A stretch of 64,000 bases of DNA, from IMG/VR virus record IMGVR_UViG_3300029133_000263, one strand, 5' to 3'. The number at the start of each line of letters is the position of its first letter. The stretch's first letter is position 1. The stretch is from a virus. The position numbers were made by a program, and so were the translations under genes. The notes beneath the pieces are model-generated. The model saw only the letters and a program-made list of their open reading frames with translations. It had not been told where the DNA came from and made no database searches. Of this stretch, positions 18,591-59,515 are shown piece after piece.

Positions 18591-18681
18591 AAGTGTTGTA
18601 CGACAGATAATAAACCGGCATCAACCATTCATAATCTGACAAATTCAGACAGGCACCAATCGGGTGACCTGTCTTTTTTTG
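18591..18681 (+). ncRNA. short promoter-proximal transcript / leader ending in an intrinsic terminator (starts TGTACGACAGATAA)
   Basis: GACAGGCACC..GGTGACCTGTC hairpin plus T8 at 18648-18681; homologous to the 58269-58382 leader. Confidence 0.4.
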
Positions 18682-18720
18682 TTGCAAGACCGCGTAATGC
18701 GGAGAAAGTCGAGGAAAGCT

Positions 18721-19071
18721 ATGAACACCATTATGAACACCGCCGAATTCATCCGCGTTACCGACCTCCTGAAGAAGGAGAAAATTGCCAAAAATAGCGG
18801 CAACATATTTGCCGCTATGATGGCGATGCGCGAGAACCGCCCCGAAGCAATCTGCGCAGATGGCTTTAAGATGTCTATCCAGGCATCCGAAGACCACTAC
18901 TGCCAGAAGGACGACGAGGGGAGCTACGTGAGCGTAGAAGTCGGGTTCCCGTCTCCGTCCGAGCCATTGCTCGACGAATATGGTGATGACGGAGTGTACG
19001 GCTATGTGCCGCTCACTGTTGTCGATGCCATCATCGCCAAGCACGGTGGAATCCTGCTCGATGAGCAGTAA
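18721..19071 (+). CDS. small conserved protein, paralogue of 59189-59515
   Basis: shared motifs EAICADGF.MSIQAS..HYC ... YVP..VVDAI.AKHGGI in both copies. Confidence 0.55.
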   Translation: MNTIMNTAEFIRVTDLLKKEKIAKNSGNIFAAMMAMRENRPEAICADGFKMSIQASEDHYCQKDDEGSYVSVEVGFPSPSEPLLDEYGDDGVYGYVPLTVVDAIIAKHGGILLDEQ

Positions 19072-19220
19072 GCCACTCTATCCAATTCCAGCATGACATT
19101 CGGCTGCACGCCGTTTGTTCATATATGAAGCGGTTATCATTTCTCTTAATGAGAGCAAAAATGATAGCTGCTATTTTTATTTTACAAGCCTCGAAAATAC
19201 GAGGAGAAAGAGAGTTTGCT

Positions 19221-19919
19221 ATGAACACCAACACTATCACTATCAATTCCAAGAAAGCTATCCCCGGCATCAATGATGTGGCTACTAAGTGCCCTGCAGC
19301 AGCCAACATGTGGGGCAGCAAAAACGCTTGCTCTCCAAATGAGGTATCTGCAGGCAACAACAAAATGGCATGGTTTGTCTGCCCCGATTGCAAACAGGAG
19401 TTTAAGGCTCCCGTTTGCAACGTCGTCAATTCTTTGTTGCATGACAATACCGGTTGCCCTGTTTGTGCAGGTCGCAAAGCTGTTTTCGGCGTCAACGATT
19501 TGGCGACCATGTATCCAAAAGCCGCTGCTATGTGGAGCGGCAAGAACGATTACGCCCCCAGCGAAATTCCTGCTCGGTCGTCCAGACGCGCAATTTTTGC
19601 GTGCCCCGATTGCAAACAAGAGTTTGTGACAAGCGTCCACAACATGACGCGGGCTATTGCATCCGGTGTTACTTGCTGCCCCAATTGCAGAATGCGAGGA
19701 AATACTATCGGTGCGATTTACAAGGATGAGTATGGTTCGCCAAAATCTGTTGGCACTACGATGACGATGAAGGACGGCAGCAAAGCCACCTGCACCGCTT
19801 ATCATGGTGTCAACAACATCACCGTCGAGTTCGAAGACGGGTTCGTTCTGTACCATGCTCGCTGGAATCAGTTTATCCGTGGCGTTCTTCACCACGGTCA
19901 GAAAACCACTGAAGAATAA
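19221..19919 (+). CDS. zinc-ribbon repeat protein (three GxNDLAT...AAMWS...CPDCKxEF units)
   Basis: repeated CxxC-containing units; paralogue of the next gene; conserved 5' leader. Confidence 0.6.
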   Translation: MNTNTITINSKKAIPGINDVATKCPAAANMWGSKNACSPNEVSAGNNKMAWFVCPDCKQEFKAPVCNVVNSLLHDNTGCPVCAGRKAVFGVNDLATMYPKAAAMWSGKNDYAPSEIPARSSRRAIFACPDCKQEFVTSVHNMTRAIASGVTCCPNCRMRGNTIGAIYKDEYGSPKSVGTTMTMKDGSKATCTAYHGVNNITVEFEDGFVLYHARWNQFIRGVLHHGQKTTEE

Positions 19920-20048
19920 TAAAAAGCCATCTGATACGAAGTTGGCTTGTGAATGTGAATGTAGCAGCTATCATCTTCCTCCAGTAGGGGGATGGTCGCT
20001 GCTTTTTTATTACAAGCCTCGAATGTTACGAGGAGAAAGAGAAAAATT

Positions 20049-21608
20049 ATGAATGCTTTTATGAATGTTATGCACACCACCACCTGCAACTGCACTGCTT
20101 GCACGACTGTTCCGACTCTTGGCATTAAGATGCCGTATGAGGAAGAGGAAAAGAAAGCTACTAAAACTAGAAAGACTCGCCAAAAACTGATTGTTGGAGA
20201 AAACGATTTGGCTACGGTCGCTCCTGAAGTTGCCGCAATGCTGAGTGAGAAAGATAAGCACTTTGCTTTTGAAGTTACTGCTGGAAGCAACAGGAAACTT
20301 ACTTTTGTCTGCCCTGACTGCAAGAAAGAGTTTGAGGCTAAAATTTGCAGTGTCACAATAGCAGTTTGCCCATGTCCTTATTGCCGCAAAGTAAAAAAAG
20401 CGCGTCGCAATCCGAAACCTATTGTTGGAGTTAATGATTTGGCTTCGCAATGCCCGCAGGCTGTAGCAATGTGGAGTGAAAAGAATAAATGCTACCCAAC
20501 AGAAGTTTTCGCCCAAAGCACTAAGACTGCAATTTTCAATTGCCCAAAATGTAAGCACGAATTTGAGACGACTGTCACATCCTTTGTGAAAAGCATCAAA
20601 AAATCGAAAGGCAATACTACTGGCTGCCCTATCTGTAATGGGACTAAAGTTGTTGTTGGCTACAATGATTTAGCTACGACCTGCCCCCAAGTAGCTGCTA
20701 TGTTAAGCAAAAAAAACGCTGACTTTGCAACAAAGTACACTATGGGAAGCAATGCGGTTGCAAGTTTTACTTGTCCTGATTGCAAAAAAGAGTTTGAGGC
20801 TAAAATTTGCAAAGTCACAAATGTAGTTTACCCATGTCCTTATTGCCGCGATACGAAAATTCTCGCTAATCATATGGATTTGGAAACTTACTTAAAGAAA
20901 AATAATCGAGAGGATATTCTTAACTGTATTCGTCCAGATAGTCCGTATCAGGCAAGTGAAGTTTCTTATTCCAGCAACAAAACATTATTTCTTAATTGCC
21001 CTGAATGTGGTAATAAATGGGTGATTTCAGCCAATTATCTGACTGCACAAGGCATTAGTTATATGTGTGGTAATTGTAATCAAACGACAAATTTTATTTC
21101 CAAGCCAGAGCAGTATGCTGTTCGTATTGCAATGGGTTTTGCAAGGGAAAACGGAGTTCCAAATGCATTCGATGAAGTTCGTCACATTTTTGGCTATAAC
21201 AACAAATATGGTGTAGATTTTGTCGATAACACTCGCAAGGTTTGCATGGAGTACAATGGTGTATATTGGCATAAAGACAAAAAAAGAGTTGATTGCTATA
21301 AATTCATCAAAATCCATAATGCCGGATATACTTTTATTCGTATACTGGAACCGGGCTTAAAAGCTTTTGACAAAAAATATGACATTGTATTGCCAAAAAA
21401 CTACAAACACGGTAACGAGTATGAATCAAAAATCATGGAGGACCTTGGCTATAAGCTTATTTCTTTATTTGAGGAAATCTATAATTACAAGGCCACTCCT
21501 GAAATTCAAAAATTAGTCGATTTTAAAGAATTCGAAAAGTGGTACGATATTCATCGCAAAAGAATTTCTGCAAAAGCTACCGAAAACGCAGCAAAGAAAG
21601 CTGCCTGA
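20049..21608 (+). CDS. zinc-ribbon repeat protein with C-terminal Vsr/PD-(D/E)xK-like endonuclease-fold domain
   Basis: four zinc-ribbon units; C-terminal FDEV..FGYNNKYGVDFVD...EYNGVYWHKDKK..D resembles very-short-patch-repair-like endonuclease domains. Confidence 0.55.
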   Translation: MNAFMNVMHTTTCNCTACTTVPTLGIKMPYEEEEKKATKTRKTRQKLIVGENDLATVAPEVAAMLSEKDKHFAFEVTAGSNRKLTFVCPDCKKEFEAKICSVTIAVCPCPYCRKVKKARRNPKPIVGVNDLASQCPQAVAMWSEKNKCYPTEVFAQSTKTAIFNCPKCKHEFETTVTSFVKSIKKSKGNTTGCPICNGTKVVVGYNDLATTCPQVAAMLSKKNADFATKYTMGSNAVASFTCPDCKKEFEAKICKVTNVVYPCPYCRDTKILANHMDLETYLKKNNREDILNCIRPDSPYQASEVSYSSNKTLFLNCPECGNKWVISANYLTAQGISYMCGNCNQTTNFISKPEQYAVRIAMGFARENGVPNAFDEVRHIFGYNNKYGVDFVDNTRKVCMEYNGVYWHKDKKRVDCYKFIKIHNAGYTFIRILEPGLKAFDKKYDIVLPKNYKHGNEYESKIMEDLGYKLISLFEEIYNYKATPEIQKLVDFKEFEKWYDIHRKRISAKATENAAKKAA

Positions 21609-30614: not shown

Positions 30615-30642
30615 CTTGCGCCGCTGTGCGAACTTCGTACAA
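30615..30642 (+). promoter_or_regulatory. family promoter (TTGCGC-N16-TACAAT, spacer CGCTGTGCGAACTTCG)
   Basis: read directly. Confidence 0.55.
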
Positions 30643-30781
30643 TAAGAATTGTACAAGAGAAACGGCAAGAGACATTTGTAGTGATTGTAGTTGGTCGCCA
30701 CGAATCGATGCCGTGTCTGCTTGCGCATAATTACCTCTTTTCGAAGCCCACAGGTCATTCTCTCACCTGTGGGTTTTGTTT
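30643..30781 (+). ncRNA. promoter-proximal transcript ending in a terminator (CCCACAGGT..ACCTGTGGG + TTTTGTTT)
   Basis: no convincing ORF. Confidence 0.4.
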
Positions 30782-30782
30782 A

Positions 30783-30810
30783 TTGCGGAATCGTGCGAAT
30801 TGCAGACAAT
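30783..30810 (+). promoter_or_regulatory. family promoter (TTGCGG-N16-GACAAT, spacer AATCGTGCGAATTGCA)
   Basis: read directly; followed by a ~390-nt leader. Confidence 0.55.
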
Positions 30811-31198
30811 TAAAGACAGAGCGATTGTGAGATGGGGCGATACCGATGCAGTAGGAATGAGAATCTTAGCAGCTAAAAGAGTCAACAACCCCGCCTAAAC
30901 CGGTTCGCCGGTTATAGACGGGGCTTGCGGGGCAACCTGTAAGCCCAGTTGATTAGCCTAAGCCCATTGCTCCGGCAGTGGGGAAAACTACGTTGTGTAC
31001 TAATAATATAGGCACCTTATCCATGCTCCACAAGTGGTGAGCTCTGCAGGCGTTTCGTTAAACATCTCCGAGGGGAGGAGAAGTGCGAGCGTCATGTCGA
31101 AAGGCTAAAACAGTGCATAACATTGGCGAAGTGGACCACAGGACGCAAGTCCTGACTTATAGTTTTATTACTATTTTACGAATGGAGAAACAAAAATT

Positions 31199-32842
31199 AT
31201 GGTATATGTGATTGCGATTGTGGCAGCCCTGATTATTCTCTTTGGATTTCTCTGCTACAAGAAAGCTCCGCCCACGGAGGCTATCGTTGTGACCGGCTTT
31301 GGTCTGTCTAAGCCTAAAGTAGTTTGCGGAAAAGGTACATTTGTTCTGCCCGTTCTTCAGCGGGCTGACCGGCTAAATATGCGCCTTCTGAAAATTGACG
31401 TCAAAACTCCTGAAACAGGTGTTAAGACGAAGAACGGCGTAAGTCTCTGGATTGACTCTGTTGTCACGATTCAAGTCTACAGCGAAAACTCTACCGTTCT
31501 GGATGAAGAAGTGAAGGCATCCGGTCTGAAAGACGCCAAGGCGTACATCATGTCCCGCCAACAGGCAGCCATCTCGAACTTTCTGGGCATGAACGAGCAG
31601 GGCATCAATGAGAAAGTTAATGACGTTCTGCAGGGCAATTTGCGTGAGATTGTCTCTGACATGACCGTCGACCAAATTCTGACGAACCGCAAGCAGATGG
31701 CTGTGAGCGTTATCGAGAATGCTCGCCCCGACCTTGCTAAGATGGGACTTGAGGTCGTGACTTTTAACGTCCAGGATATCAGGGATGCGGTGGATGTTCA
31801 GGGCCACAACCACGGCGTCATTGAGGCTATCGGCATTGAACAGGAAGAGCTTGTGAAAAAACAGGCTGAAATTGCCCGTGCTCAGGCTGCCCGTGATGTA
31901 GCCTGCGCGAAGGCCGATGCTGAGATGGCTGCAAATGCCAAGGAAGTTGAAGCGCAGACTGCGATTGCAAAACGCAACAATGAATTGCAGCTCGCCAAGG
32001 CAAAGCTGAAAGCTGAAGCTGATAAAGCTGCGGCTGACGCAGATGCTGCCGGTCAGATTCAGATGAATCTCCGCGCCAAAGAAATCAAAGAAGCGGAAGC
32101 GGATGCTGAAATCGCCAAGCAGAAGAAAATGGTAGACCTTGCCGCACAGGAAGCCGAGGTCCAGCAACGCAAACTGGATGCGGAAGTCCGCAAACAGGCA
32201 GATGCTGACCTGTACCGCCGCCAGAAAGAGGCAGAAGCCAAGAAATATGAGGCGGAACGTGCAGCTGAGGCACAGAAGTTCTCCAAGCAGCAGGAAGCAG
32301 AAGGCATTGAACTTGTCGGTAAGGCAGAAGCTGAAGCGATTCGTCAGAAAGGCTTGGCTGAAGCGGAAGCCATGAAACAGAAAGCAGAGGCATATAAGCA
32401 GTATAACGATGCGGCTGTGGCTGAAATGCTCATCAAGGTTCTTCCTGACATTGCCAAAAGCGTGGCTCAGCCTTTGTCCAGCATTGATAAGGTTTCTATC
32501 ATTGGCGGTGACGCCTCCGGCGTATCCGGCGTTTCCGGGAACGTTCCTATCCTGATGGCTCAAACCATGCAGACGGTGAAAGAAGCGACCGGAATCGACA
32601 TGGGCGAAATTGTCCGTGCCAACAGCATCCAGGCAAAGACCGACCGCAACATCAACATCATGAATCAAGGCGAACAGCCTGTGAATAGTGAAAAGGAAGG
32701 AGGTGTCAATGCTATGGAACGCGTAGAAGGCGGCTATCTAATTCATGAGAAGCGTCTCAACGGTGAGGAAGTCACTCATTTTCGACCGGATGTGACCGAA
32801 GAAGAGAAGGCTATCATGAAAGACAAAAAGGCCAAAGATTAA
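31199..32842 (+). CDS. SPFH/band-7 flotillin-like membrane protein with long Ala/Glu/Lys coiled coil
   Basis: N-terminal TM, SPFH-like region, long heptad-rich AEAKAEA segment; 547 aa. Confidence 0.75.
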   Translation: MVYVIAIVAALIILFGFLCYKKAPPTEAIVVTGFGLSKPKVVCGKGTFVLPVLQRADRLNMRLLKIDVKTPETGVKTKNGVSLWIDSVVTIQVYSENSTVLDEEVKASGLKDAKAYIMSRQQAAISNFLGMNEQGINEKVNDVLQGNLREIVSDMTVDQILTNRKQMAVSVIENARPDLAKMGLEVVTFNVQDIRDAVDVQGHNHGVIEAIGIEQEELVKKQAEIARAQAARDVACAKADAEMAANAKEVEAQTAIAKRNNELQLAKAKLKAEADKAAADADAAGQIQMNLRAKEIKEAEADAEIAKQKKMVDLAAQEAEVQQRKLDAEVRKQADADLYRRQKEAEAKKYEAERAAEAQKFSKQQEAEGIELVGKAEAEAIRQKGLAEAEAMKQKAEAYKQYNDAAVAEMLIKVLPDIAKSVAQPLSSIDKVSIIGGDASGVSGVSGNVPILMAQTMQTVKEATGIDMGEIVRANSIQAKTDRNINIMNQGEQPVNSEKEGGVNAMERVEGGYLIHEKRLNGEEVTHFRPDVTEEEKAIMKDKKAKD

Positions 32843-33867: not shown

Positions 33868-35562
33868 GTGACAAAAAAGAACATTTTCCCTGTGGTTGCA
33901 ACCATTGCTGTGGTAGGCGTTGTTCTCGGAGTATTTTCGATGACGGTGATGAGGGACTCAAACGTCAGCATTAGTACAATGACGTCCGAGCAGGCATATG
34001 CCAACTTGAGCAGCAAGATGAAGCGCATCGGCGTGCAGGAGGTCAAGGTCAATCCTCAGCAGCTGGATGTCTCTGAATTCCTTGATGCAAAGGATGAACT
34101 GCCCGACATTGAATCCTCCTACCCATTCGTGGTCGTAGGAAACGGAGATGTGAACATCGAAATCTTTTCCTCTGGCGAGAAAGCAGCAGAGTCCGGCTCA
34201 GATTCTTTCCTGACCGAAATGGCAAAGAAGTTCAACGCCCAGCACAACAAGACTTCCGGAGACAAGACTATGAGTGTCTCCCTGCGCTCCATTCCGTCCG
34301 GTACGGCGGCTGAGTACATCTCGACGGGAAAGTATCAGCCCGAGTGCTATACCCCCTCAAATACGCTCTTTGGCGAGCTGGTGAAGAACGAGGGCGTAGA
34401 ATTGACCGTTGAGGCTGACCGTCTGGTCGGCAATGTGGCGGGTATTCTCGTATCAAAGAAGACAGGGGATATGCTTCGCTCTGAATACGGTGAAGCGTCT
34501 GTTTCTTCCGTTCTGAACGCAACCATCGATGGCAAACTCATGATGGGATACTCGAACCCCTACACAAGTGCTACGGGTCTTAATTTTCTGCTTGAGGCTC
34601 TTGCGAGCAGCGGCAGCGATACGATTGTCGATACGGCTGCTGTTGAGAATTTCCAGAAATTTCAAGCGAACGTCCCTCTCGTATCCTTCACGACCCAGCA
34701 GATGGTCCAGTCGGCAGACAAGGGCATCGTGGACGGCGTTGTCATGGAGTATCAGTCTTATCAGAATGACCCGACCTTACAGCGCAACTACGAGTTCATC
34801 CCGTTCGGTGTACGGCACGATAATCCTCTGTATTCCATCGGGAATGTCTCTGCGGAGAAGAAGGAAGTTATTGCTGCCTTCGTTTCCTTCTGCGCTCAGA
34901 ACCAGGCAGAGGCGACCAAGGACGGATTCAATGGTCTTGACGACTATGCTTATACAGGCAAGGCATACGATGGCAACACCATCGCACAGGCTCAGAGTGT
35001 CTGGAAAGAAGAGAAGGACTCAGGCATTCCTATTGTGGCAGAGTTCGTTGTCGATACTTCCGGCTCGATGCGCGGCGAACCCCTGAATGCCCTGAAAACC
35101 GCGATGATAAACACCATCCAGTATATCAATGACGACAACTATATCGGCATCATTGGCTTTGATTCAGATGTCAGGGAATACCTGCCCATTAACCAGTTCT
35201 CTCTGACCCAGAAAACTCTGTATAAGGGTGCCGTGAACTCCCTCGATGCGAACGGCAGCACCGCAATGTACAACGGTCTTTGCGTTGCTATGGACCGCAT
35301 CTACCAGAAATCTCAGGAACTGGGTGGGAATTGCACGCCCATCATCTTTGTGCTCACGGACGGTGACAACAATACCGGATATGGCTTCTCCGATACGAAG
35401 AACATCATTGCCGGTATGGATATCCCTATCTATACCATCAGCTACAACTACGCAGCGGATAGTCTTTCGGAGCTCGCTTCCATCAACGAAGCGGCAGCTA
35501 TCGTCGGCAACAGCGAGGATATCACCTACAAGCTCCGCAACCTGTTTAACGCAGAGATGTAA
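33868..35562 (+). CDS. membrane-anchored von Willebrand factor A (vWA) domain protein
   Basis: GTG start with AAAGGAGA RBS; N-terminal TM; C-terminal MIDAS motif DTSGSM...NGSTAM...TDGDNNTGY. Confidence 0.7.
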   Translation: MTKKNIFPVVATIAVVGVVLGVFSMTVMRDSNVSISTMTSEQAYANLSSKMKRIGVQEVKVNPQQLDVSEFLDAKDELPDIESSYPFVVVGNGDVNIEIFSSGEKAAESGSDSFLTEMAKKFNAQHNKTSGDKTMSVSLRSIPSGTAAEYISTGKYQPECYTPSNTLFGELVKNEGVELTVEADRLVGNVAGILVSKKTGDMLRSEYGEASVSSVLNATIDGKLMMGYSNPYTSATGLNFLLEALASSGSDTIVDTAAVENFQKFQANVPLVSFTTQQMVQSADKGIVDGVVMEYQSYQNDPTLQRNYEFIPFGVRHDNPLYSIGNVSAEKKEVIAAFVSFCAQNQAEATKDGFNGLDDYAYTGKAYDGNTIAQAQSVWKEEKDSGIPIVAEFVVDTSGSMRGEPLNALKTAMINTIQYINDDNYIGIIGFDSDVREYLPINQFSLTQKTLYKGAVNSLDANGSTAMYNGLCVAMDRIYQKSQELGGNCTPIIFVLTDGDNNTGYGFSDTKNIIAGMDIPIYTISYNYAADSLSELASINEAAAIVGNSEDITYKLRNLFNAEM

Positions 35563-35681
35563 CTCAAAAGCGCGGTTTTGTCCGCGCAGCTGCTCCAAAA
35601 GACAGCCTCCACGCGGCGAGCAGCGGGCAACGGGAGACAGTCCCGGCAAATTGTCTTTGAGACGGAAGGAAGAAGTGCCCT

Positions 35682-44145: not shown

Positions 44146-44260
44146 TGCTTGCAATGGCTTGCGGGTTCCATGTAATTAAAGGTGTAATCAAAAAGAATTA
44201 TCTTTTGCGAGGACTCCGTTGCTGACGGCGTTCTCGTTCTCTTTTTTTACAAAGACAAAA

Positions 44261-44298
44261 GGCTGCCGCCCATCATGGGCAGCAGCCTTCTTTTTTTG
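44261..44298. terminator. bidirectional intrinsic terminator
   Basis: GGCTGCCGCCCATCATGGGCAGCAGCC followed by a T-run. Confidence 0.6.
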
Positions 44299-44348: not shown

Positions 44349-46235
44349 TCACTGAACAACCTCGCCAAGGTCGTTTGCATATTTCGGGTCACACATCATG
44401 AAGTAGTTGACGGGGCCGTACTCCAGACCGAGCTCCTGCGCGTATGCCTTGATGGCTTCCAGGACGTCCTCTTTCTTGAGGCCAAACTTGGAATGCAGAC
44501 GGGCAAACTCTTTGTCAGAGACAGAAACGCAAGAGCAATTTTCTGCATCGGTTTCTTTGCTGCCCAGCATCCCGTCAAAGATGTCCTGTCCTGCACAGAG
44601 AATCGTCTCATTGTTCATCACATAGGCGATAACGGAAGCCTTACAGTCAAAGTCGCTGTCTTCCACAAGGAAATCCTCAGGGCGGCCGTGACGTTCAACA
44701 ACGTTTTCATAGATGTCCCGGAGTTCGATAGGAGCAGAAGGAGCGGTCAGCGCTGCTTTATGAAGGCGCATGAATTCCACGAACTTTTCATCCGAGAGGG
44801 TATCGGTATAAAAGCCGATGCCGGAAACGCGAACCTTCACTTCGCTGGCAAAGTAATCGTCAATTTTGGAGACGATTTTCTGCTGGACCCGCTTGTATGC
44901 TTCCTGAACATTGGAAGCCGTGTAAAATACCGGAAACTTCATGATGTCGATTTCCTCCGGCAGACTCGCGTCATAGGCCGCATCAATGCCGCCTCGCAGC
45001 GCCGGAACCGCGTCATGCAGCTCTTTCACAGAAGAAATGTATCCGGTAATGTACAGCTCATCGTTTTTGCTGTAATGCCCGATAAGTCCCACATAGAGGG
45101 TCTGCATCAGCATCCGCTTGAAGCTGAACCAGCAAAGTCGAATAGGAAGAATGACGTTTGCGGCCGAACCTTCCGCGTGATAGTTGCTGGGTGCAGAGAC
45201 CTTTTCCAGCAGAATCTGGCCGTTCTTGTCACCGTATTTTTCCTTGAAAAGAGCTTGAAGAATTTCAGTGGACGAAAGAGGAGTGGACATTGGAATCGTT
45301 TCATTCAGAAAAGAGAGGAATGCATCCACGTTGTCTTTCTGCCATGCGTCATCAGACATGCTTGCACGCTGCATAGAGAGCTTGTCTTTCCCGTCGTCAG
45401 GCAAGGGCTCATACCCACAGGCGATACGAAGCTCGTTCTCCGTGACAGCATCCGTTGCGCTTGCAATTTTCTTGAGGGTGTTTTCGGTCGGCTGAGCTTT
45501 TGCGTTGCCATTCACGAGGCTGCTGATATACCCACGAGTCAGTCCTGCCTGAAACGCAAACTTACCCTGTGTTCGGGTTCCGATGGCTTTTTTGACCAGC
45601 GATGCCAGCCTTTGAAAGTCGGGCTCTTTGGGAAAGGTGGCCTCCGTATCCTTATTGCTGTTCTTTTCAAGTACCGACTTGTCCCAACCGGTGACAAGAG
45701 AATACCCAATATCCTTCAAGGATTGGTAGGCAACCCCGTTCTGGTCAAGAGCCGGGGAGAATGTACCGCTGTTATCTTCCAGCTGCTCTACTGCCTCACG
45801 CACCATCCTTGCTTCGTTCATCAGGATGACGTCCGGGGCTTCAAGCCGGGCAAGACTCTTGTACCGACTATTGAGGCGCTCGACTCGTGCGGCCAATGCA
45901 GTGATGTTGGCAACTTGGCCCTTCGTTGCATGGGCAGAGATATCTGCACCAAGTTCAAAATGGTTCAGTGCAGGAATATCCACGCTTTTGCTCTTGGCGA
46001 ATTCCACAATGGCTTCCGCGCCATAGAAACGCTTCTCATGGGCTGCGACAACTTTCGTTATCGTGTCGGCCGAGTTGTCCAGCTCAAGCACTTCACCTTT
46101 TCCGGCATCCTCGACATAACACCTGGCGTTGGTGAGAAAGCCTTTCAAAAAATCAGCATCCACATCCAGCTTCTTAGCGATGCCGGGCAGCTGCTTATAG
46201 AAAATCACGGGTGTGGCGAGGTTAACAGAAATCAT
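44349..46235 (-). CDS. large (628 aa) protein with central XRE-family HTH domain; candidate element regulator
   Basis: HTH_3-like segment GKFAFQAGLTRGYISSLVNGNAKAQPTENTLKKIA; divergent from tandem family promoters. Confidence 0.6.
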   Translation of the reverse strand: MISVNLATPVIFYKQLPGIAKKLDVDADFLKGFLTNARCYVEDAGKGEVLELDNSADTITKVVAAHEKRFYGAEAIVEFAKSKSVDIPALNHFELGADISAHATKGQVANITALAARVERLNSRYKSLARLEAPDVILMNEARMVREAVEQLEDNSGTFSPALDQNGVAYQSLKDIGYSLVTGWDKSVLEKNSNKDTEATFPKEPDFQRLASLVKKAIGTRTQGKFAFQAGLTRGYISSLVNGNAKAQPTENTLKKIASATDAVTENELRIACGYEPLPDDGKDKLSMQRASMSDDAWQKDNVDAFLSFLNETIPMSTPLSSTEILQALFKEKYGDKNGQILLEKVSAPSNYHAEGSAANVILPIRLCWFSFKRMLMQTLYVGLIGHYSKNDELYITGYISSVKELHDAVPALRGGIDAAYDASLPEEIDIMKFPVFYTASNVQEAYKRVQQKIVSKIDDYFASEVKVRVSGIGFYTDTLSDEKFVEFMRLHKAALTAPSAPIELRDIYENVVERHGRPEDFLVEDSDFDCKASVIAYVMNNETILCAGQDIFDGMLGSKETDAENCSCVSVSDKEFARLHSKFGLKKEDVLEAIKAYAQELGLEYGPVNYFMMCDPKYANDLGEVVQ

Positions 46236-46472
46236 GGTGTACTCCTTTCAAATATGTCATTAGGTGTACAATGCTGTCATCTTCTGTAATTATAATAGCA
46301 CATCCCGCACCAAAAAGCAAGCAAGAATTTACAATAAATGACAAGAAAATACACGAGATGACATATTTGAGTGTGACGGCTGATTTTTGAGTCTTTCCTG
46401 TTCAGCAGCGGAACAAGCCTTGTGCGTCTTGTCTATGCCATGACTTTGCCACTGTTTTGCCACAGTTTTGCC

Positions 46473-46500
46473 TTGTGCATCCGTGCAAATTGAATATTAT
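46473..46500 (+). promoter_or_regulatory. family promoter (TTGTGC-N16-TATTAT, spacer ATCCGTGCAAATTGAA)
   Basis: read directly. Confidence 0.55.
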
Positions 46501-46560
46501 TGTAAATATAGGATGAATCAGTGTGAGCTGCAGAGATTAGGAATTCTGCGGCTCTTTCTT
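46501..46560 (+). ncRNA. ~58-nt transcript ending in a terminator (GAGCTGCAGAG..TCTGCGGCTC + T-run); tandem copy 1
   Basis: starts AAATATAGGA; no ORF. Confidence 0.4.
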
Positions 46561-46688
46561 ATGTGGCCCCTAAAAGTCGTGATAAATGCACGCGTGCGTT
46601 CTAAAAATGTGTGCGTGCGTTTTTTGTGTATTTTCACGCATTTATCGCTCGTTATTTGTGTGGGGTAGTGTTTTGCCATAATTTTGCC

Positions 46689-46716
46689 TTGTGCATCCGT
46701 GCGAATTAAATATGAT
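46689..46716 (+). promoter_or_regulatory. family promoter (TTGTGC-N16-TATGAT, spacer ATCCGTGCGAATTAAA)
   Basis: read directly. Confidence 0.55.
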
Positions 46717-46779
46717 AAGAAATATAAGATAAATAAGTGTGAGCCGTAGAGATTGAGTTTCTGCGGCTCCTTTCTTTTG
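46717..46779 (+). ncRNA. ~60-nt transcript ending in a terminator; tandem copy 2, followed by a second hairpin terminator at 46784-46821
   Basis: GAGCCGTAGAG..CTGCGGCTC + T-run. Confidence 0.4.
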
Positions 46780-46825
46780 TGGTCCCCATGCGGATGAAAA
46801 TGTCTGCGTGGGGTTTTTTTTAATT

Positions 46826-48016
46826 ATGGAATACTTGTATAAGCAATATAACAACGAACCCGGGAAAGCTCCGACAGGAGAAAAATATATATACGTTATT
46901 ACTGAAATAGAAACAGGAAAAATGTATATAGGACAAACCAGTAATTTCCACGCTCGTATGCGTTCGCATAGAACCTGCAAGTGCAACCAACATAGCGCAA
47001 TTGATAGAGCTATTCAAGAAAAAGGTGCGGACGCATTCCAATATGAGATTTTAGAGTTGTGTGCTGCTGATGACGCTGATAGCAGAGAACGATATTGGAT
47101 AGAAAAATCCGATTCTTGCAATGAACAAAAAGGTTTCAATACGTTTAAGGGCGGCCAAAAGAGTTTTTCAGATGAAAACTACTCTATGCTTGTAGAAATG
47201 CTTCAGCAAGGAATGACATTAAAGACTGCGTGTGACGCTATAAATACCTCTATTGCTTCTGCAAGGAGAGAATTGAAGAGGCGAGACACAAATTTGTCGG
47301 AAATCCGCTGTTCGGCAGCCGAACATAAATATCTGCGCCGCAAAAGCACTCTCGGAAAAGAAATCAATATAGCTGACGTACTGAAAATGTATCAAAATGG
47401 CATGTCATCGAAAGAAATAGCAGAGCACTATGGTATGAACTCATCCGCTTTTTATCGCCGGTTAAAAGAAAATGGGTTGAGCGCCAGAGCAATTGCTCAG
47501 CCAAATTACGGAACAGCATCTGCTCTTTTCGACAAAGATAAAGCTATTGCAATGTGTAAAGACGGATATTCTGCCAGCGAGATAGGCGATGCTATGGGAT
47601 TGCCGTATTACACAATAGAGAGGCTTCTTCGAAAGTCTGGATATTCTATATCATTGATTGCAGATGAAGAAGCAGCAGATAAAAGAAAGAAGCGAAACAA
47701 AAAACGAAGCCAAAATGGAAACTTCAATTTTGAAATGGCCGTTGATTTTTTAAGAGAAGGTTACAAGATACAAGCGATAGCTGATTTGATGGGCATATCA
47801 GATGCTCACCTAAGAACAAAGCTCAAACAAAACGGCTTTGATTTAGAAAAAACGCTTCCAATTATAGTCTGTGACGAAACGGGCGAAACGTTTCTTACAA
47901 TGATAGAAGCGGCAAAAGCGTACAACGTAAGCTATACATCACTACGGAAATGTTTTGAAAAAAAGCAGGGTTACTGTGGCGGCTACCATTGGCACAAAGA
48001 AAAGCAGAATTTTTGA
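46826..48016 (+). CDS. GIY-YIG nuclease domain protein with three HTH repeats and NUMOD-like C-terminus (homing-endonuclease-like)
   Basis: KYIYVITEIETGKMYIGQT...R..H GIY-YIG motif; repeated (Y/M)..G.S..EI......S...Y.RL..NG units. Confidence 0.65.
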   Translation: MEYLYKQYNNEPGKAPTGEKYIYVITEIETGKMYIGQTSNFHARMRSHRTCKCNQHSAIDRAIQEKGADAFQYEILELCAADDADSRERYWIEKSDSCNEQKGFNTFKGGQKSFSDENYSMLVEMLQQGMTLKTACDAINTSIASARRELKRRDTNLSEIRCSAAEHKYLRRKSTLGKEINIADVLKMYQNGMSSKEIAEHYGMNSSAFYRRLKENGLSARAIAQPNYGTASALFDKDKAIAMCKDGYSASEIGDAMGLPYYTIERLLRKSGYSISLIADEEAADKRKKRNKKRSQNGNFNFEMAVDFLREGYKIQAIADLMGISDAHLRTKLKQNGFDLEKTLPIIVCDETGETFLTMIEAAKAYNVSYTSLRKCFEKKQGYCGGYHWHKEKQNF

Positions 48017-48063
48017 CTCCAATGCAAAATACAGCATCGGATTTTTTATTGGGAGATATAGAC

Positions 48064-49050
48064 ATGGCAAAGAATGAGAATCTGCACAAGGCAAAGGACG
48101 CGAAGAACGACGAGTTTTATACCAGAATCGAGGATGTTGCAGAGGAACTACGGCACTACAAAAAGCATTTCGCGGGCAAGGTCGTATTCTGCAACTGCGA
48201 TGACCCGACATGGTCCGCTTTCTGGCGGTATTTCCACCTGAACTTTGCAGAACTTGGCTTAAAGAAGCTGATTTCCACGCACTACGACCGTACAGAACCC
48301 ACCTATAAAATGGAGTACGAGGGCGGAGATGACAACAATGTAGAAGTCGGAGTCAAGACTCCGCTGGAAGGCAACGGTGATTTCCGGAACAAAGAATGCC
48401 TTGACCTGCTGGATGAGTGCGACATCGTAGTCACAAATCCTCCATTCAGCTTAGCTAGAGCCTATGTCCAGTATCTACGTGAGCACAATAAGCAATTCGT
48501 TATTATTGGGGACCTCAACTGGATTACATACAAAGAAATTTTCCCGATGCTGAAAGATAATGAAATCTGGCTGGGATATTCTTCTGTAAAAGAGTTCACG
48601 CAACCTGACGGGACAATCAAGAAGTTCGGGAATAAATTGTGGTATACCAACCTCGACATCCAGAAACGTCACGAGAAGCTGATTCTCTGGCAGCGGTACT
48701 ATGACGATGACGGGAATCCGCTGCCGGATGCAGAGGAGCGCTACCCCCACTATGATAACTACGACGCTATCAACGTGGATAGGGTCGCCGATATTCCGAT
48801 GGATTATCAAGGTGTAATGGGTGTGCCGATTACATTCTTGAATGGTTACAATCCGGAGCAGTTTGAAATTGTGGAGTTAAGTAGATATCTTAACCATGAA
48901 GGAATGTCTAAGAAATTCGTTGAAACGTATTACAAACAAGGCGGAAAAGGCCAAATTAAAGAAGGTCATCCAGACCTTTGCTATTATGATGACAAAGGTA
49001 AAGCAATCGTTCCATACATGCGAGTCCTTATAAAGAAAACAATTGCTTGA
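48064..49050 (+). CDS. putative N6-adenine DNA methyltransferase (orphan)
   Basis: catalytic-type DIVVTNPPFS motif; GGGAGA RBS; no cognate restriction gene recognised. Confidence 0.6.
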   Translation: MAKNENLHKAKDAKNDEFYTRIEDVAEELRHYKKHFAGKVVFCNCDDPTWSAFWRYFHLNFAELGLKKLISTHYDRTEPTYKMEYEGGDDNNVEVGVKTPLEGNGDFRNKECLDLLDECDIVVTNPPFSLARAYVQYLREHNKQFVIIGDLNWITYKEIFPMLKDNEIWLGYSSVKEFTQPDGTIKKFGNKLWYTNLDIQKRHEKLILWQRYYDDDGNPLPDAEERYPHYDNYDAINVDRVADIPMDYQGVMGVPITFLNGYNPEQFEIVELSRYLNHEGMSKKFVETYYKQGGKGQIKEGHPDLCYYDDKGKAIVPYMRVLIKKTIA

Positions 49051-59188: not shown

Positions 59189-59515
59189 ATGGCTATTTTC
59201 AACACCAACGATTTCCTTCGCAAAACCTTCAGCAAGACCATTTTTGGTACTGCTGCACTTCGTCCGGAAGCGGTTTGTGCAGACGGCTTCACCCTGTCTA
59301 TTCAGGCAAGCAGCATGCACTACTGTATACCGAGTGAGGACCTGTCGGACGGCGATTACTCTAAGGTCGAACTCAGCTACTTGTCTGAGGAGGTCGAAGA
59401 GTTTCTGCCGTTTGCTGAAGACGACGAGGCTCCGCTGGCTACGGTCTACGGGTATGTGCCTGTAGAAATCGTGGATGCGGTTCTTGCCAAGCACGGCGGC
59501 ATCGTCAACGTTTAA
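59189..59515 (+). CDS. small conserved protein, paralogue of 18721-19071
   Basis: shared motifs with the 18721 gene. Confidence 0.55.
   Translation: MAIFNTNDFLRKTFSKTIFGTAALRPEAVCADGFTLSIQASSMHYCIPSEDLSDGDYSKVELSYLSEEVEEFLPFAEDDEAPLATVYGYVPVEIVDAVLAKHGGIVNV

Follow-up and report, generated by a model that had tools for sequence, protein, structure and literature searches.

The 64,000-nt stretch of DNA analysed here (IMG/VR record IMGVR_UViG_3300029133_000263; hereafter the window, numbered from its first nucleotide) carries on its minus strand a gene for a 628-residue protein with a central XRE-type helix-turn-helix (HTH). Our sequence comparisons and structure model indicate that the first 190 amino acids (aa) of this protein are a free-standing copy of the clamp head of the RNA polymerase β' subunit, clamp helices included, joined to the HTH. 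Both σ region 2 and the NGN domains of the NusG family dock principally on these helices of the clamp head (PMC12000874, PMC11685472). We tentatively propose, as a possibility somewhat short of probable, that the protein is an autoregulated regulator of a mobile element, whose clamp mimic captures a factor that binds the clamp helices.

The N-terminal module as a copy of the clamp head

A profile built from 29 full-length homologs retrieved β' chains from the PDB, with family positions 108-176 aligned to E. coli β' 262-330 (E = 5.8e-8). A profile of 36 stand-alone relatives of the module matched β' along two collinear segments (E = 1.7e-22, 83 bits), with profile positions 1-89 corresponding to β' 100-193, from the MGHIEL.PV motif onwards, and positions 113-179 to β' 262-328. 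The module starts at the equivalent of β' M102 (MGHIEL.PV against MIxIxL..PV). A single-sequence phmmer search of 1.84 billion proteins found the RpoC fragments P0178 (1e-9) and P0214 (2e-7), both confirmed as RNA_pol_Rpb1_1, and the NCBIfam rpoC models match the module at 2.9e-7. The AlphaFold2 model (mean predicted local distance difference test, pLDDT, 86.7) contains a helical hairpin (Table 1) that retains the β' core AP.II..NE.RML.EAV..L..N, and all of the top 50 Foldseek matches in the PDB are β', aligned over about 230 columns (20-22% identity). Behind the module comes a disordered linker (aa 192-199).

When only the N-terminal 203 aa were used, a word-index search returned nothing beyond close relatives. 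No family describing clamp-like proteins was found in Pfam, NCBIfam, PHROG or PADLOC, and the source annotations of the clamp-head proteins read "hypothetical protein". We found no description of a free-standing β' clamp homolog in the literature, which is absence of evidence only, as full-text coverage was thin for subscription journals. In our view, what is new at this locus is the kind of protein that the clamp-head module represents; taken one by one, the HTH, the leader hairpins and the divergent promoter described below are ordinary.

On a codon-usage score trained on the Pfam-confirmed genes of the window, the 628-aa open reading frame (ORF) reaches 0.25, compared to 0.03 for the overlapping shadow ORF on the plus strand. 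Between 30 and 64 kb, the other long ORFs of the minus strand have scores typical of shadows of plus-strand genes, so the gene is the only large one on the minus strand in this interval, as a preliminary description of the window had stated. That description had also placed a central HTH_3-type domain between two unknown flanking domains, and had suggested that these be examined using AlphaFold and fold searches. Pfam HTH_3 indeed matches aa 222-269 above its gathering score, and the five-helix XRE fold is present. The N-terminal flank can now be assigned to the β' clamp head, while the C-terminal part, a middle domain and a C-terminal domain (CTD), gave no informative match in the fold search and stays as described. 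No Peptidase_S24 domain or ImmA-type partner was detected in the protein or its neighbours using Pfam and PHROGs.

Conservation of the docking face

The stand-alone proteins have a majority consensus that is identical to E. coli β' at about 23 of the 48 clamp-helix positions, although identity within the family is only about 25-30%. Exposed polar residues on the solvent side are among the positions retained. R278 is kept in 35 of the 36 stand-alone and 28 of the 29 fused proteins (R124 in the 628-aa protein), E295 in 33 and 28 (E141) and N294 in 27 and 26 (N140), respectively; the 628-aa protein also retains the equivalent of N309 (N155). R297 is found in 31 of the stand-alone and 9 of the fused proteins (R143 here), and A302 in 19 and 5 (A148). 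R275 occurs in 28 of the 36 stand-alone proteins and has been lost in the fused family (G, S or L), with L121 in the 628-aa protein. Holoenzyme formation suffers when R275Q, E295K or A302D is introduced (PMC8321222). The basic rudder residues, which contact nucleic acid in β', are lost in the stand-alone and fused families alike. Judged by this pattern of residues, the module looks like a protein-docking mimic and not like a nucleic-acid-handling part of the enzyme.

Split and fused forms of the protein

We recovered 453 homologs of the 628-aa protein; the cluster 97% identical to it, one of those formed at 90% identity, holds 4588 member sequences, and the homologs are abundant in human-gut metagenomes. 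Residues 1-200 also occur elsewhere as stand-alone proteins of about 200-240 aa. Among the representatives of 50%-identity clusters, about 55 have the clamp head only, about 47 the HTH and C-terminal part only, and four have both modules. In two of these four fusions (P0215 and P0254), the clamp head is joined directly to the CTD and the HTH is absent. Where the clamp head stands alone, a gene for an HTH+CTD protein follows 0-16 bp 3' of it in all cases with enough contig (L010, L011, L023 and L024/25). Adjacent split genes in other mobile elements on the one hand and a fusion on the other form a Rosetta-stone link, which argues that the clamp head and the HTH-CTD protein act together; in the lineage of the window they are one fused protein.

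Two further observations concern related loci. In L026 (4891-8519) and L027 (5620-9248), a 415-aa clamp-head+CTD fusion without an HTH is encoded 15 bp 3' of a 788-aa HamA(DUF1837)+NACHT+SNaCT14 gene and 5' of a Schlafen/AlbA_2-HATPase gene, and this operon with a clamp copy may be a new defence operon. In L023 (1921-2427), about 6 kb from the split clamp-head/HTH-C pair, a 168-aa protein has a weak precomputed match to the RNA polymerase α C-terminal domain; it may be a further polymerase-fragment mimic on the same element.

Candidate operators and possible autoregulation

Four hexamer boxes around the putative promoter of the gene are the best operator candidates for the 628-aa protein. One pair lies in the 5' untranslated region (UTR) and the other 5' of the -35 element (Table 1), and both pairs are symmetric about position ~46309, bracketing the promoter. 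In L009, whose protein is 40% identical, TGTATC/GATACA occupies the same four positions, and in L001 (56% identity) the boxes are two copies of TGTCTAAAG and one inverted TTTAGACA. Since the box sequence varies together with the protein at fixed positions, the boxes behave as cognate operators would, which would imply autoregulation; the arrangement fits an autoregulated repressor. The minus-strand promoter was also considered as a member of the promoter family described below, and was rejected because its GTGCGGG is not kept in L004.

Homologs down to 40% identity keep the layout in which a single gene on the opposite strand diverges from a family promoter. The preliminary description had envisaged a regulator divergent from operator-bearing promoters under its control. 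The XRE gene is divergent from the promoter region and candidate boxes are present, but they flank the gene's own promoter, and the cargo promoter has other repeats (TTTGCC).

The divergent layout and the four symmetric boxes also agree with a plain master repressor or controller, comparable to restriction-modification (R-M) C-proteins or ImmR/CI/Rco. Here the HTH would repress its own and the divergent cargo promoter, the N-terminal module would be no more than a coiled coil for oligomerisation or scaffolding, lacking any partner related to RNA polymerase, and the two promoter-terminator units described in the next section would be small regulatory RNAs (sRNAs). A weak PADLOC 'Control_protein' match, the methylases and R-M systems behind the promoter in relatives, and the loss of two of the three σ-critical residues in the fused lineage point in the same direction. 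However, a mere scaffold would not explain why about half of the clamp-helix positions, exposed polar residues included, are retained, and the module also exists as an independent protein and in HTH-less N+CTD fusions. Its sRNA part is weak for the reasons given below. We consider the plain repressor rather unlikely.

The divergent promoter and its leader

The promoter divergent from the gene belongs to a family with the consensus TTGc-N6-GTGCGAAyT-N5-tAyAAT and a 16-nt spacer. Counting near variants, 13 members are present in the window, including one in each of the two local copies, as had been proposed. The pattern GTGCGAAYN5ANAAT has 10 exact matches against 0.04 expected, all on the plus strand. 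In addition to the repeats abutting copy 1 (Table 1), copy 2 is preceded by two TTTGCC(A) repeats at 46674-46688; relatives carry two to four, and none were found at the other family promoters of the window.

The two local copies form a tandem repeat with a period of 216 bp, in which 46453-46538 and 46669-46754 are 85% identical and a shared 21-mer occurs twice against 0.00 expected. Both this repeat and the four hairpin and T-run sites that follow the promoters were found where the preliminary description had placed them. Compared to shuffled sequences, the leader RNAs fold with z = -3.7 and -6.4. Several G.U pairs are present in the hairpins and C-to-U changes are tolerated on the 5' arm, so the hairpins would form in the plus-strand RNA. 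The leaders of close relatives contain no compensatory pairs, these sequences being too similar. In L009, one pair of hairpin 1 has changed in a compensatory way, from G-C to A-U, and four further changes, each on one side only, preserve pairing. Even the 40%-identity clade keeps the first part of the leader, in which a -10-like TATAAG is found.

Each unit had been put forward as a potential sRNA, which was not supported. In 10 of the 12 related loci with a hairpin leader (L004-L006, L015-L022), the cassette is single and lies directly 5' of the ribosome-binding site of the cargo gene; besides the window, only L013 and L014 have the duplication. Because the single cassette runs into the cargo ribosome-binding site in relatives, the sRNA idea is weak, and no Rfam family reaches its gathering score in the intergenic region, where only sub-threshold chance matches occur. 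The two units are better described as a lineage-specific duplication of one promoter and 5'-leader cassette. Copy 1 has its own promoter and its own terminator by consensus match only, and we read its short terminated RNA as a probable by-product of the duplication and not as a conserved sRNA gene.

At 9 of the 13 family promoters (18563, 24746, 30616, 30783, 40547, 46473, 46689, 51349 and 58241), a hairpin and T-run precede the start codon; promoter 30783 was counted by the GC-rich stem-loop in its fold. Terminator-like hairpins after family promoters are an element-wide rule, a hint of control by attenuation or antitermination. In several Gram-positive conjugative elements, promoter-proximal terminators keep genes silent until antitermination acts (PMC8191782, PMC11658703). 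A second tandem case is present at 30616-30810 (plus strand), where a family promoter, an RNA of ~130 nt and a strong terminator (about 30745-30775) are followed by another family promoter.

Among the homologous loci, a family promoter adjoins the gene in L001 and L009 and not in L002/L003; in L009 the divergent promoter is also followed by a hairpin-1 leader. L002 (7615-7880, reverse strand of the locus; 40%-identity clade, contigs of ~350 kb) has an 810-bp region 5' of the homolog that contains a canonical TTGACA/TATAAT promoter followed by a structured RNA of ~120 nt and a terminator, the GTGCGAAT motif being absent; a small cysteine-rich ORF ending in ...CGRCKP is located there as well. 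The GTGCGAAT motif was also considered as a palindromic operator and rejected, since only one half is conserved.

The leader hairpins raise the possibility of a Q-like antiterminator, in which the protein would load onto RNA polymerase at GTGCGAAT, between -35 and -10, and the polymerase would then pass the leader terminators. The binding element of lambda Q lies in the promoter spacer, and the conserved motif of the family promoters sits in the spacer as well. The frequency of hairpins ahead of genes and the conservation of the early leader with its TATAAG fit such a role, and processive antitermination is used by Gram-positive conjugative elements (conAn, PMC8191782; canT, PMC11658703). Nevertheless, the protein has no similarity to the Q or NusG families in Pfam, PHROGs or NCBIfam (no search was aimed at ConAn1). 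A copy of the clamp cannot take the clamp's own place on the polymerase, which makes it hard to explain how it would ride with the enzyme, and the four co-varying boxes are the more plausible target of the HTH. Of all the explanations discussed here, we give this one the least credence.

Cargo behind the divergent promoter

The first conserved cargo gene of the promoter encodes an EcoRI-type adenine methyltransferase, and between leader hairpin 2 and this gene the window has an inserted GIY-YIG homing endonuclease gene (Table 1). The endonuclease most likely starts at ATG 46827 and not at GTG 46808, which lies within the terminator; its ATG comes after the T-run of the terminator, and no ribosome-binding site is obvious there. 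The same insertion is seen in L015, L017 and L018. L020-L022 lack it, and there the leader joins the methylase directly, with the GGGAG ribosome-binding site retained. In L004 and L020-L022 the single cassette ends at the GGGAG-N8-ATG of the EcoRI-type methylase, and in L006 at a type I R-M methylase. Overall, the region behind the promoter is a hotspot of variable, defence-type genes in relatives (methylases, type I R-M, TIR, GmrSD/HNH, Cas type I-C); the defence-type cargo of the window itself includes GmrSD_N and DUF4145.

Such a hotspot would suit a decoy sensor, in which the clamp-head copy baits those proteins of invading phages or rival elements that target the host polymerase clamp, such as phage σ-like factors or polymerase inhibitors, and binding derepresses the neighbouring defence or anti-defence cargo. 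A decoy must keep a host-like surface, which the observed conservation fits, and the HTH-less N+CTD fusion lies between a HamA(DUF1837)-NACHT gene and a Schlafen/AlbA_2 gene. Yet that is a single independent defence-island context, since L026 and L027 are near-identical, and the 628-aa gene belongs to the syntenic core of the element, with conserved neighbours that are not defence genes (helicase, NADAR). Clamp-like proteins are not covered by any PADLOC model, and there is no known trigger. We judge the decoy sensor to be unlikely.

Table 1. Features of the 628-aa gene, its divergent promoter region and the first cargo genes
Feature	Position	Strand	Basis or detail
Intrinsic terminator 3' of the 628-aa gene, 16-bp stem and T-run	44257..44291	-	
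628-aa gene: clamp-head module, XRE HTH, middle domain, CTD	44349..46235	-	ORF; AAGGAG ribosome-binding site 7 nt 5' of ATG
CTD, aa 466-628; common to stand-alone HTH-C proteins and HTH-less N+CTD fusions	44352..44840	-	Local hidden Markov model matches
Middle α/β domain, aa 283-465, without informative relatives	44841..45389	-	
XRE-type HTH, aa 207-272	45420..45617	-	
N-terminal module, aa 1-190; homolog of β' ~100-193 and 262-330 (clamp head)	45666..46235	-	
Helical hairpin, aa 105-153; equivalent of the β' clamp helices (E. coli 259-307)	45777..45923	-	AlphaFold2 helices 105-130 and 135-153
Boxes 1 and 2, TGTCAT at 46255 and 46275; candidate operators in the 5' UTR of the gene	46255..46280	.	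Inverted repeats I1, I3, I4
Putative own promoter, TTGCTT, 17-nt spacer, TATTAT	46292..46320	-	Read from sequence; kept in relatives
Boxes 3 and 4, ATGACA at 46338 and 46358; 5' of the -35	46338..46363	.	
Four TTTGCC(A) repeats in 11-bp phase, abutting the -35 of copy 1	46437..46473	+	Sequence
Family promoter copy 1, TTGTGC, 16-nt spacer, TATTAT	46473..46500	+	Spacer motif GTGCAAAT
Copy-1 leader: hairpin 1 (46525-46554, tail TTTCTT) and strong terminator (46584-46622 and T-run)	46525..46632	+	
Family promoter copy 2, TTGTGC, 16-nt spacer, TATGAT	46689..46716	+	Spacer motif GTGCGAAT
Copy-2 leader: hairpin 1 (46741-46769 and CTTTCTTTT) and hairpin 2 (46784-46813 and T8); 5' leader of the cargo genes	46741..46821	+	
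GIY-YIG homing endonuclease	46827..48016	+	Pfam, PHROGs
EcoRI-type adenine methyltransferase	47989..49050	+	Pfam 1e-105

Proposed mechanism

In the reading that we tentatively prefer, the HTH would bind the four TGTCAT/ATGACA boxes and the protein would thereby regulate its own promoter. From this position it could also govern the divergent cargo promoter, with its TTTGCC repeats and two-hairpin leader, and possibly the whole GTGCGAAT promoter family. The clamp-head module would serve as a docking mimic that captures a protein normally bound to the β' clamp helices. The most likely target would be region 2 of the host primary σ factor; given the leader terminators, NusG is an alternative. NusG of Firmicutes stimulates pausing as well as intrinsic termination. 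After the regulator has built up, capture would either lower initiation at the family promoters or alter read-through of the leader terminators. Under this model, the cargo would be expressed in a burst when the element enters a new cell and would then be shut off.

Neither σ-70-family nor NusG/KOW domains were found in the window by Pfam in essentially all ORFs, the small ones being concatenated for the scan; the target, if any, is therefore probably a host protein. The Serglycin matches in the concatenated small-ORF scan were rejected as an artefact of the glycine-serine (GS) linkers. Other RNA polymerase subunit genes were likewise not found in the window by Pfam scans.

According to Young et al. 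2001 and 2004 (summarised in PMC12000874), a β'(1-314) fragment binds σ region 2 and raises its affinity for single-stranded -10 DNA. Because an isolated clamp fragment binds σ region 2, a DNA-tethered copy of the clamp could hold σ at or near promoters without polymerase activity. A bolder version, which we think quite improbable, is that the clamp head binds region 2 of the host σ as β' does and switches σ to its DNA-binding state. Together with the HTH it would then form a catalytically dead 'pseudo-holoenzyme' on the -10 of the GTGCGAAT promoters, perhaps melting it, and either lock these promoters shut after establishment or bookmark them for rapid firing. If this were true, the stand-alone clamp-head proteins would be widespread, undescribed transcription factors of mobile elements made from a piece of RNA polymerase.

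Several points weigh against the capture of a clamp-binding factor by an autoregulated regulator. R275 is missing from the fused subfamily, the 628-aa protein included, and A302 and R297 are infrequent there; support for σ binding is therefore weaker for the 628-aa protein than for stand-alone members. A regulator of low abundance could not titrate abundant σ globally, and would have to act locally. The GTGCGAAT motif conserved in the spacer is asymmetric and does not resemble the four boxes, and may thus not be recognised by the HTH; it is also lacking at the homologs in L002/L003. Finally, hairpin 1 is backed by only one compensatory base-pair change, and the leader hairpins could act without a dedicated factor, either by stabilising the mRNA or as leaky terminators.

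The element and its host

The genes of the window include a VirD4/TraG coupling protein, a VirB4-like ATPase, an M23 peptidase and an ImpB/UmuC polymerase (Pfam scan). The presence of type IV secretion genes (the first three of these) identifies the source of the window as a conjugative element, of Clostridia type. Other cargo found in the Pfam scan of ORFs comprises helicases, NADAR, a methylase, GmrSD_N, RlaP and DUF4145. The window has no match among the phage genomes of INPHARED, and with type IV secretion system genes present a phage immunity region can be ruled out. The immunity switch proposed in the preliminary description is thus not one in the phage sense. Searching the GTDB species representatives for the full-length family gave a single match, in a Clostridiales metagenome-assembled genome, and Rfam detected an HDV-like ribozyme of Faecalibacterium type in the window. 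From these two results, the host is probably a gut bacterium of Clostridia type, its identity being only vaguely bounded.

This ribozyme (RF02682, F. prausnitzii type, 60 bits) is located at 35589-35658 (plus strand), between a VWA-domain gene (33868-35562) and the next small gene, which suggests self-cleavage within the operon transcript. A full-length HEARO RNA (RF02033, 91 bits; 30881-31141, plus strand) lies directly 3' of family promoter 30783. As the gene that follows it (31199-32842) encodes an SPFH/flotillin protein and no IscB-type nuclease, it is an orphan or repurposed HEARO/omega-RNA-like element.

Two neighbouring genes at 19125-21608 (plus strand) encode repeated DUF4379 treble-clef zinc-finger units, with DNA repeats of 51-86 nt (73-86% identity, spacings 222-708 bp). 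Small paralogous genes at 18664-19071 and 59189-59515 (plus strand) share a C-terminus, VYGYVP..VDA..AKHGGI, and their DNA is 70% identical across 60 nt. The former lies directly 3' of family promoter 18563 and its leader terminator, and the latter about 1 kb 3' of promoter 58241, with one gene between.

Comparison with known systems

The N-terminal module is homologous in sequence and fold to the RpoC clamp head (E. coli ~100-330). In contrast to RpoC, it has only about 190 aa, without the Zn-binding N-terminus, the catalytic domains (Rpb1 domains 2-5) or the NADFDGD motif, and it is found on mobile elements, stand-alone or fused to an HTH, with the basic rudder residues lost. Since the catalytic domains are absent, the 628-aa protein is not a polymerase subunit.

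Among XRE repressors and R-M controllers (434/lambda CI, ICEBs1 ImmR, SinR and C.AhdI), the HTH_3 domain, the divergent layout and inverted boxes around the own promoter are shared features. The 628-aa protein differs in its three extra domains, in the central and not N-terminal position of its HTH and in its RNA polymerase-derived module; unlike CI/ImmR-type repressors, it has no S24 peptidase domain or ImmA-type partner. With lambda Q/tR', conAn of pLS20 and canT of Tn916, the element shares hairpins resembling intrinsic terminators within ~100 nt of promoters and ahead of genes, but neither a Q homolog nor a large antiterminator RNA was identified in it (no search was aimed at ConAn1).

The module also overlaps the β'(1-314) fragment, which together with σ R2-R3 suffices for DNA melting (PMC12000874), though it lacks residues 1-99 and part of 194-261. 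That system was engineered, and a clamp-head protein acting on σ would be a natural counterpart to this "minimal melting machinery".

Every σ-70-family initiation factor docks mainly on the β' clamp helices, and so does NusG/Spt5, which is, to our knowledge, the only universally conserved transcription factor. Competition for this docking site, as proposed here, is the feature shared with the anti-σ factors Rsd and AsiA and with Bacteroides UpxZ. The protein has no match to anti-σ families (ASD/zinc-ASD, Rsd/AlgQ, FlgM, AsiA) in Pfam, NCBIfam or PHROG. UpxZ blocks the clamp-helix-binding face of NusG paralogs in Bacteroides (PMC11685472). The clamp-head family is abundant in the gut, with dozens of stand-alone clusters at 50% identity, and occurs beside defence and anti-defence cargo on conjugative elements, where it may govern cargo expression on transfer. 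If σ or NusG is bound, the module could provide a ready-made probe or inhibitor scaffold for the docking interface. Rsd, AsiA and UpxZ bind the σ or NusG side using folds of their own that are unrelated to β', whereas here the competitor would copy the polymerase surface. With a natural, free-standing copy of that surface, regulation would rest on a decoy of the enzyme, a principle distinct from theirs.

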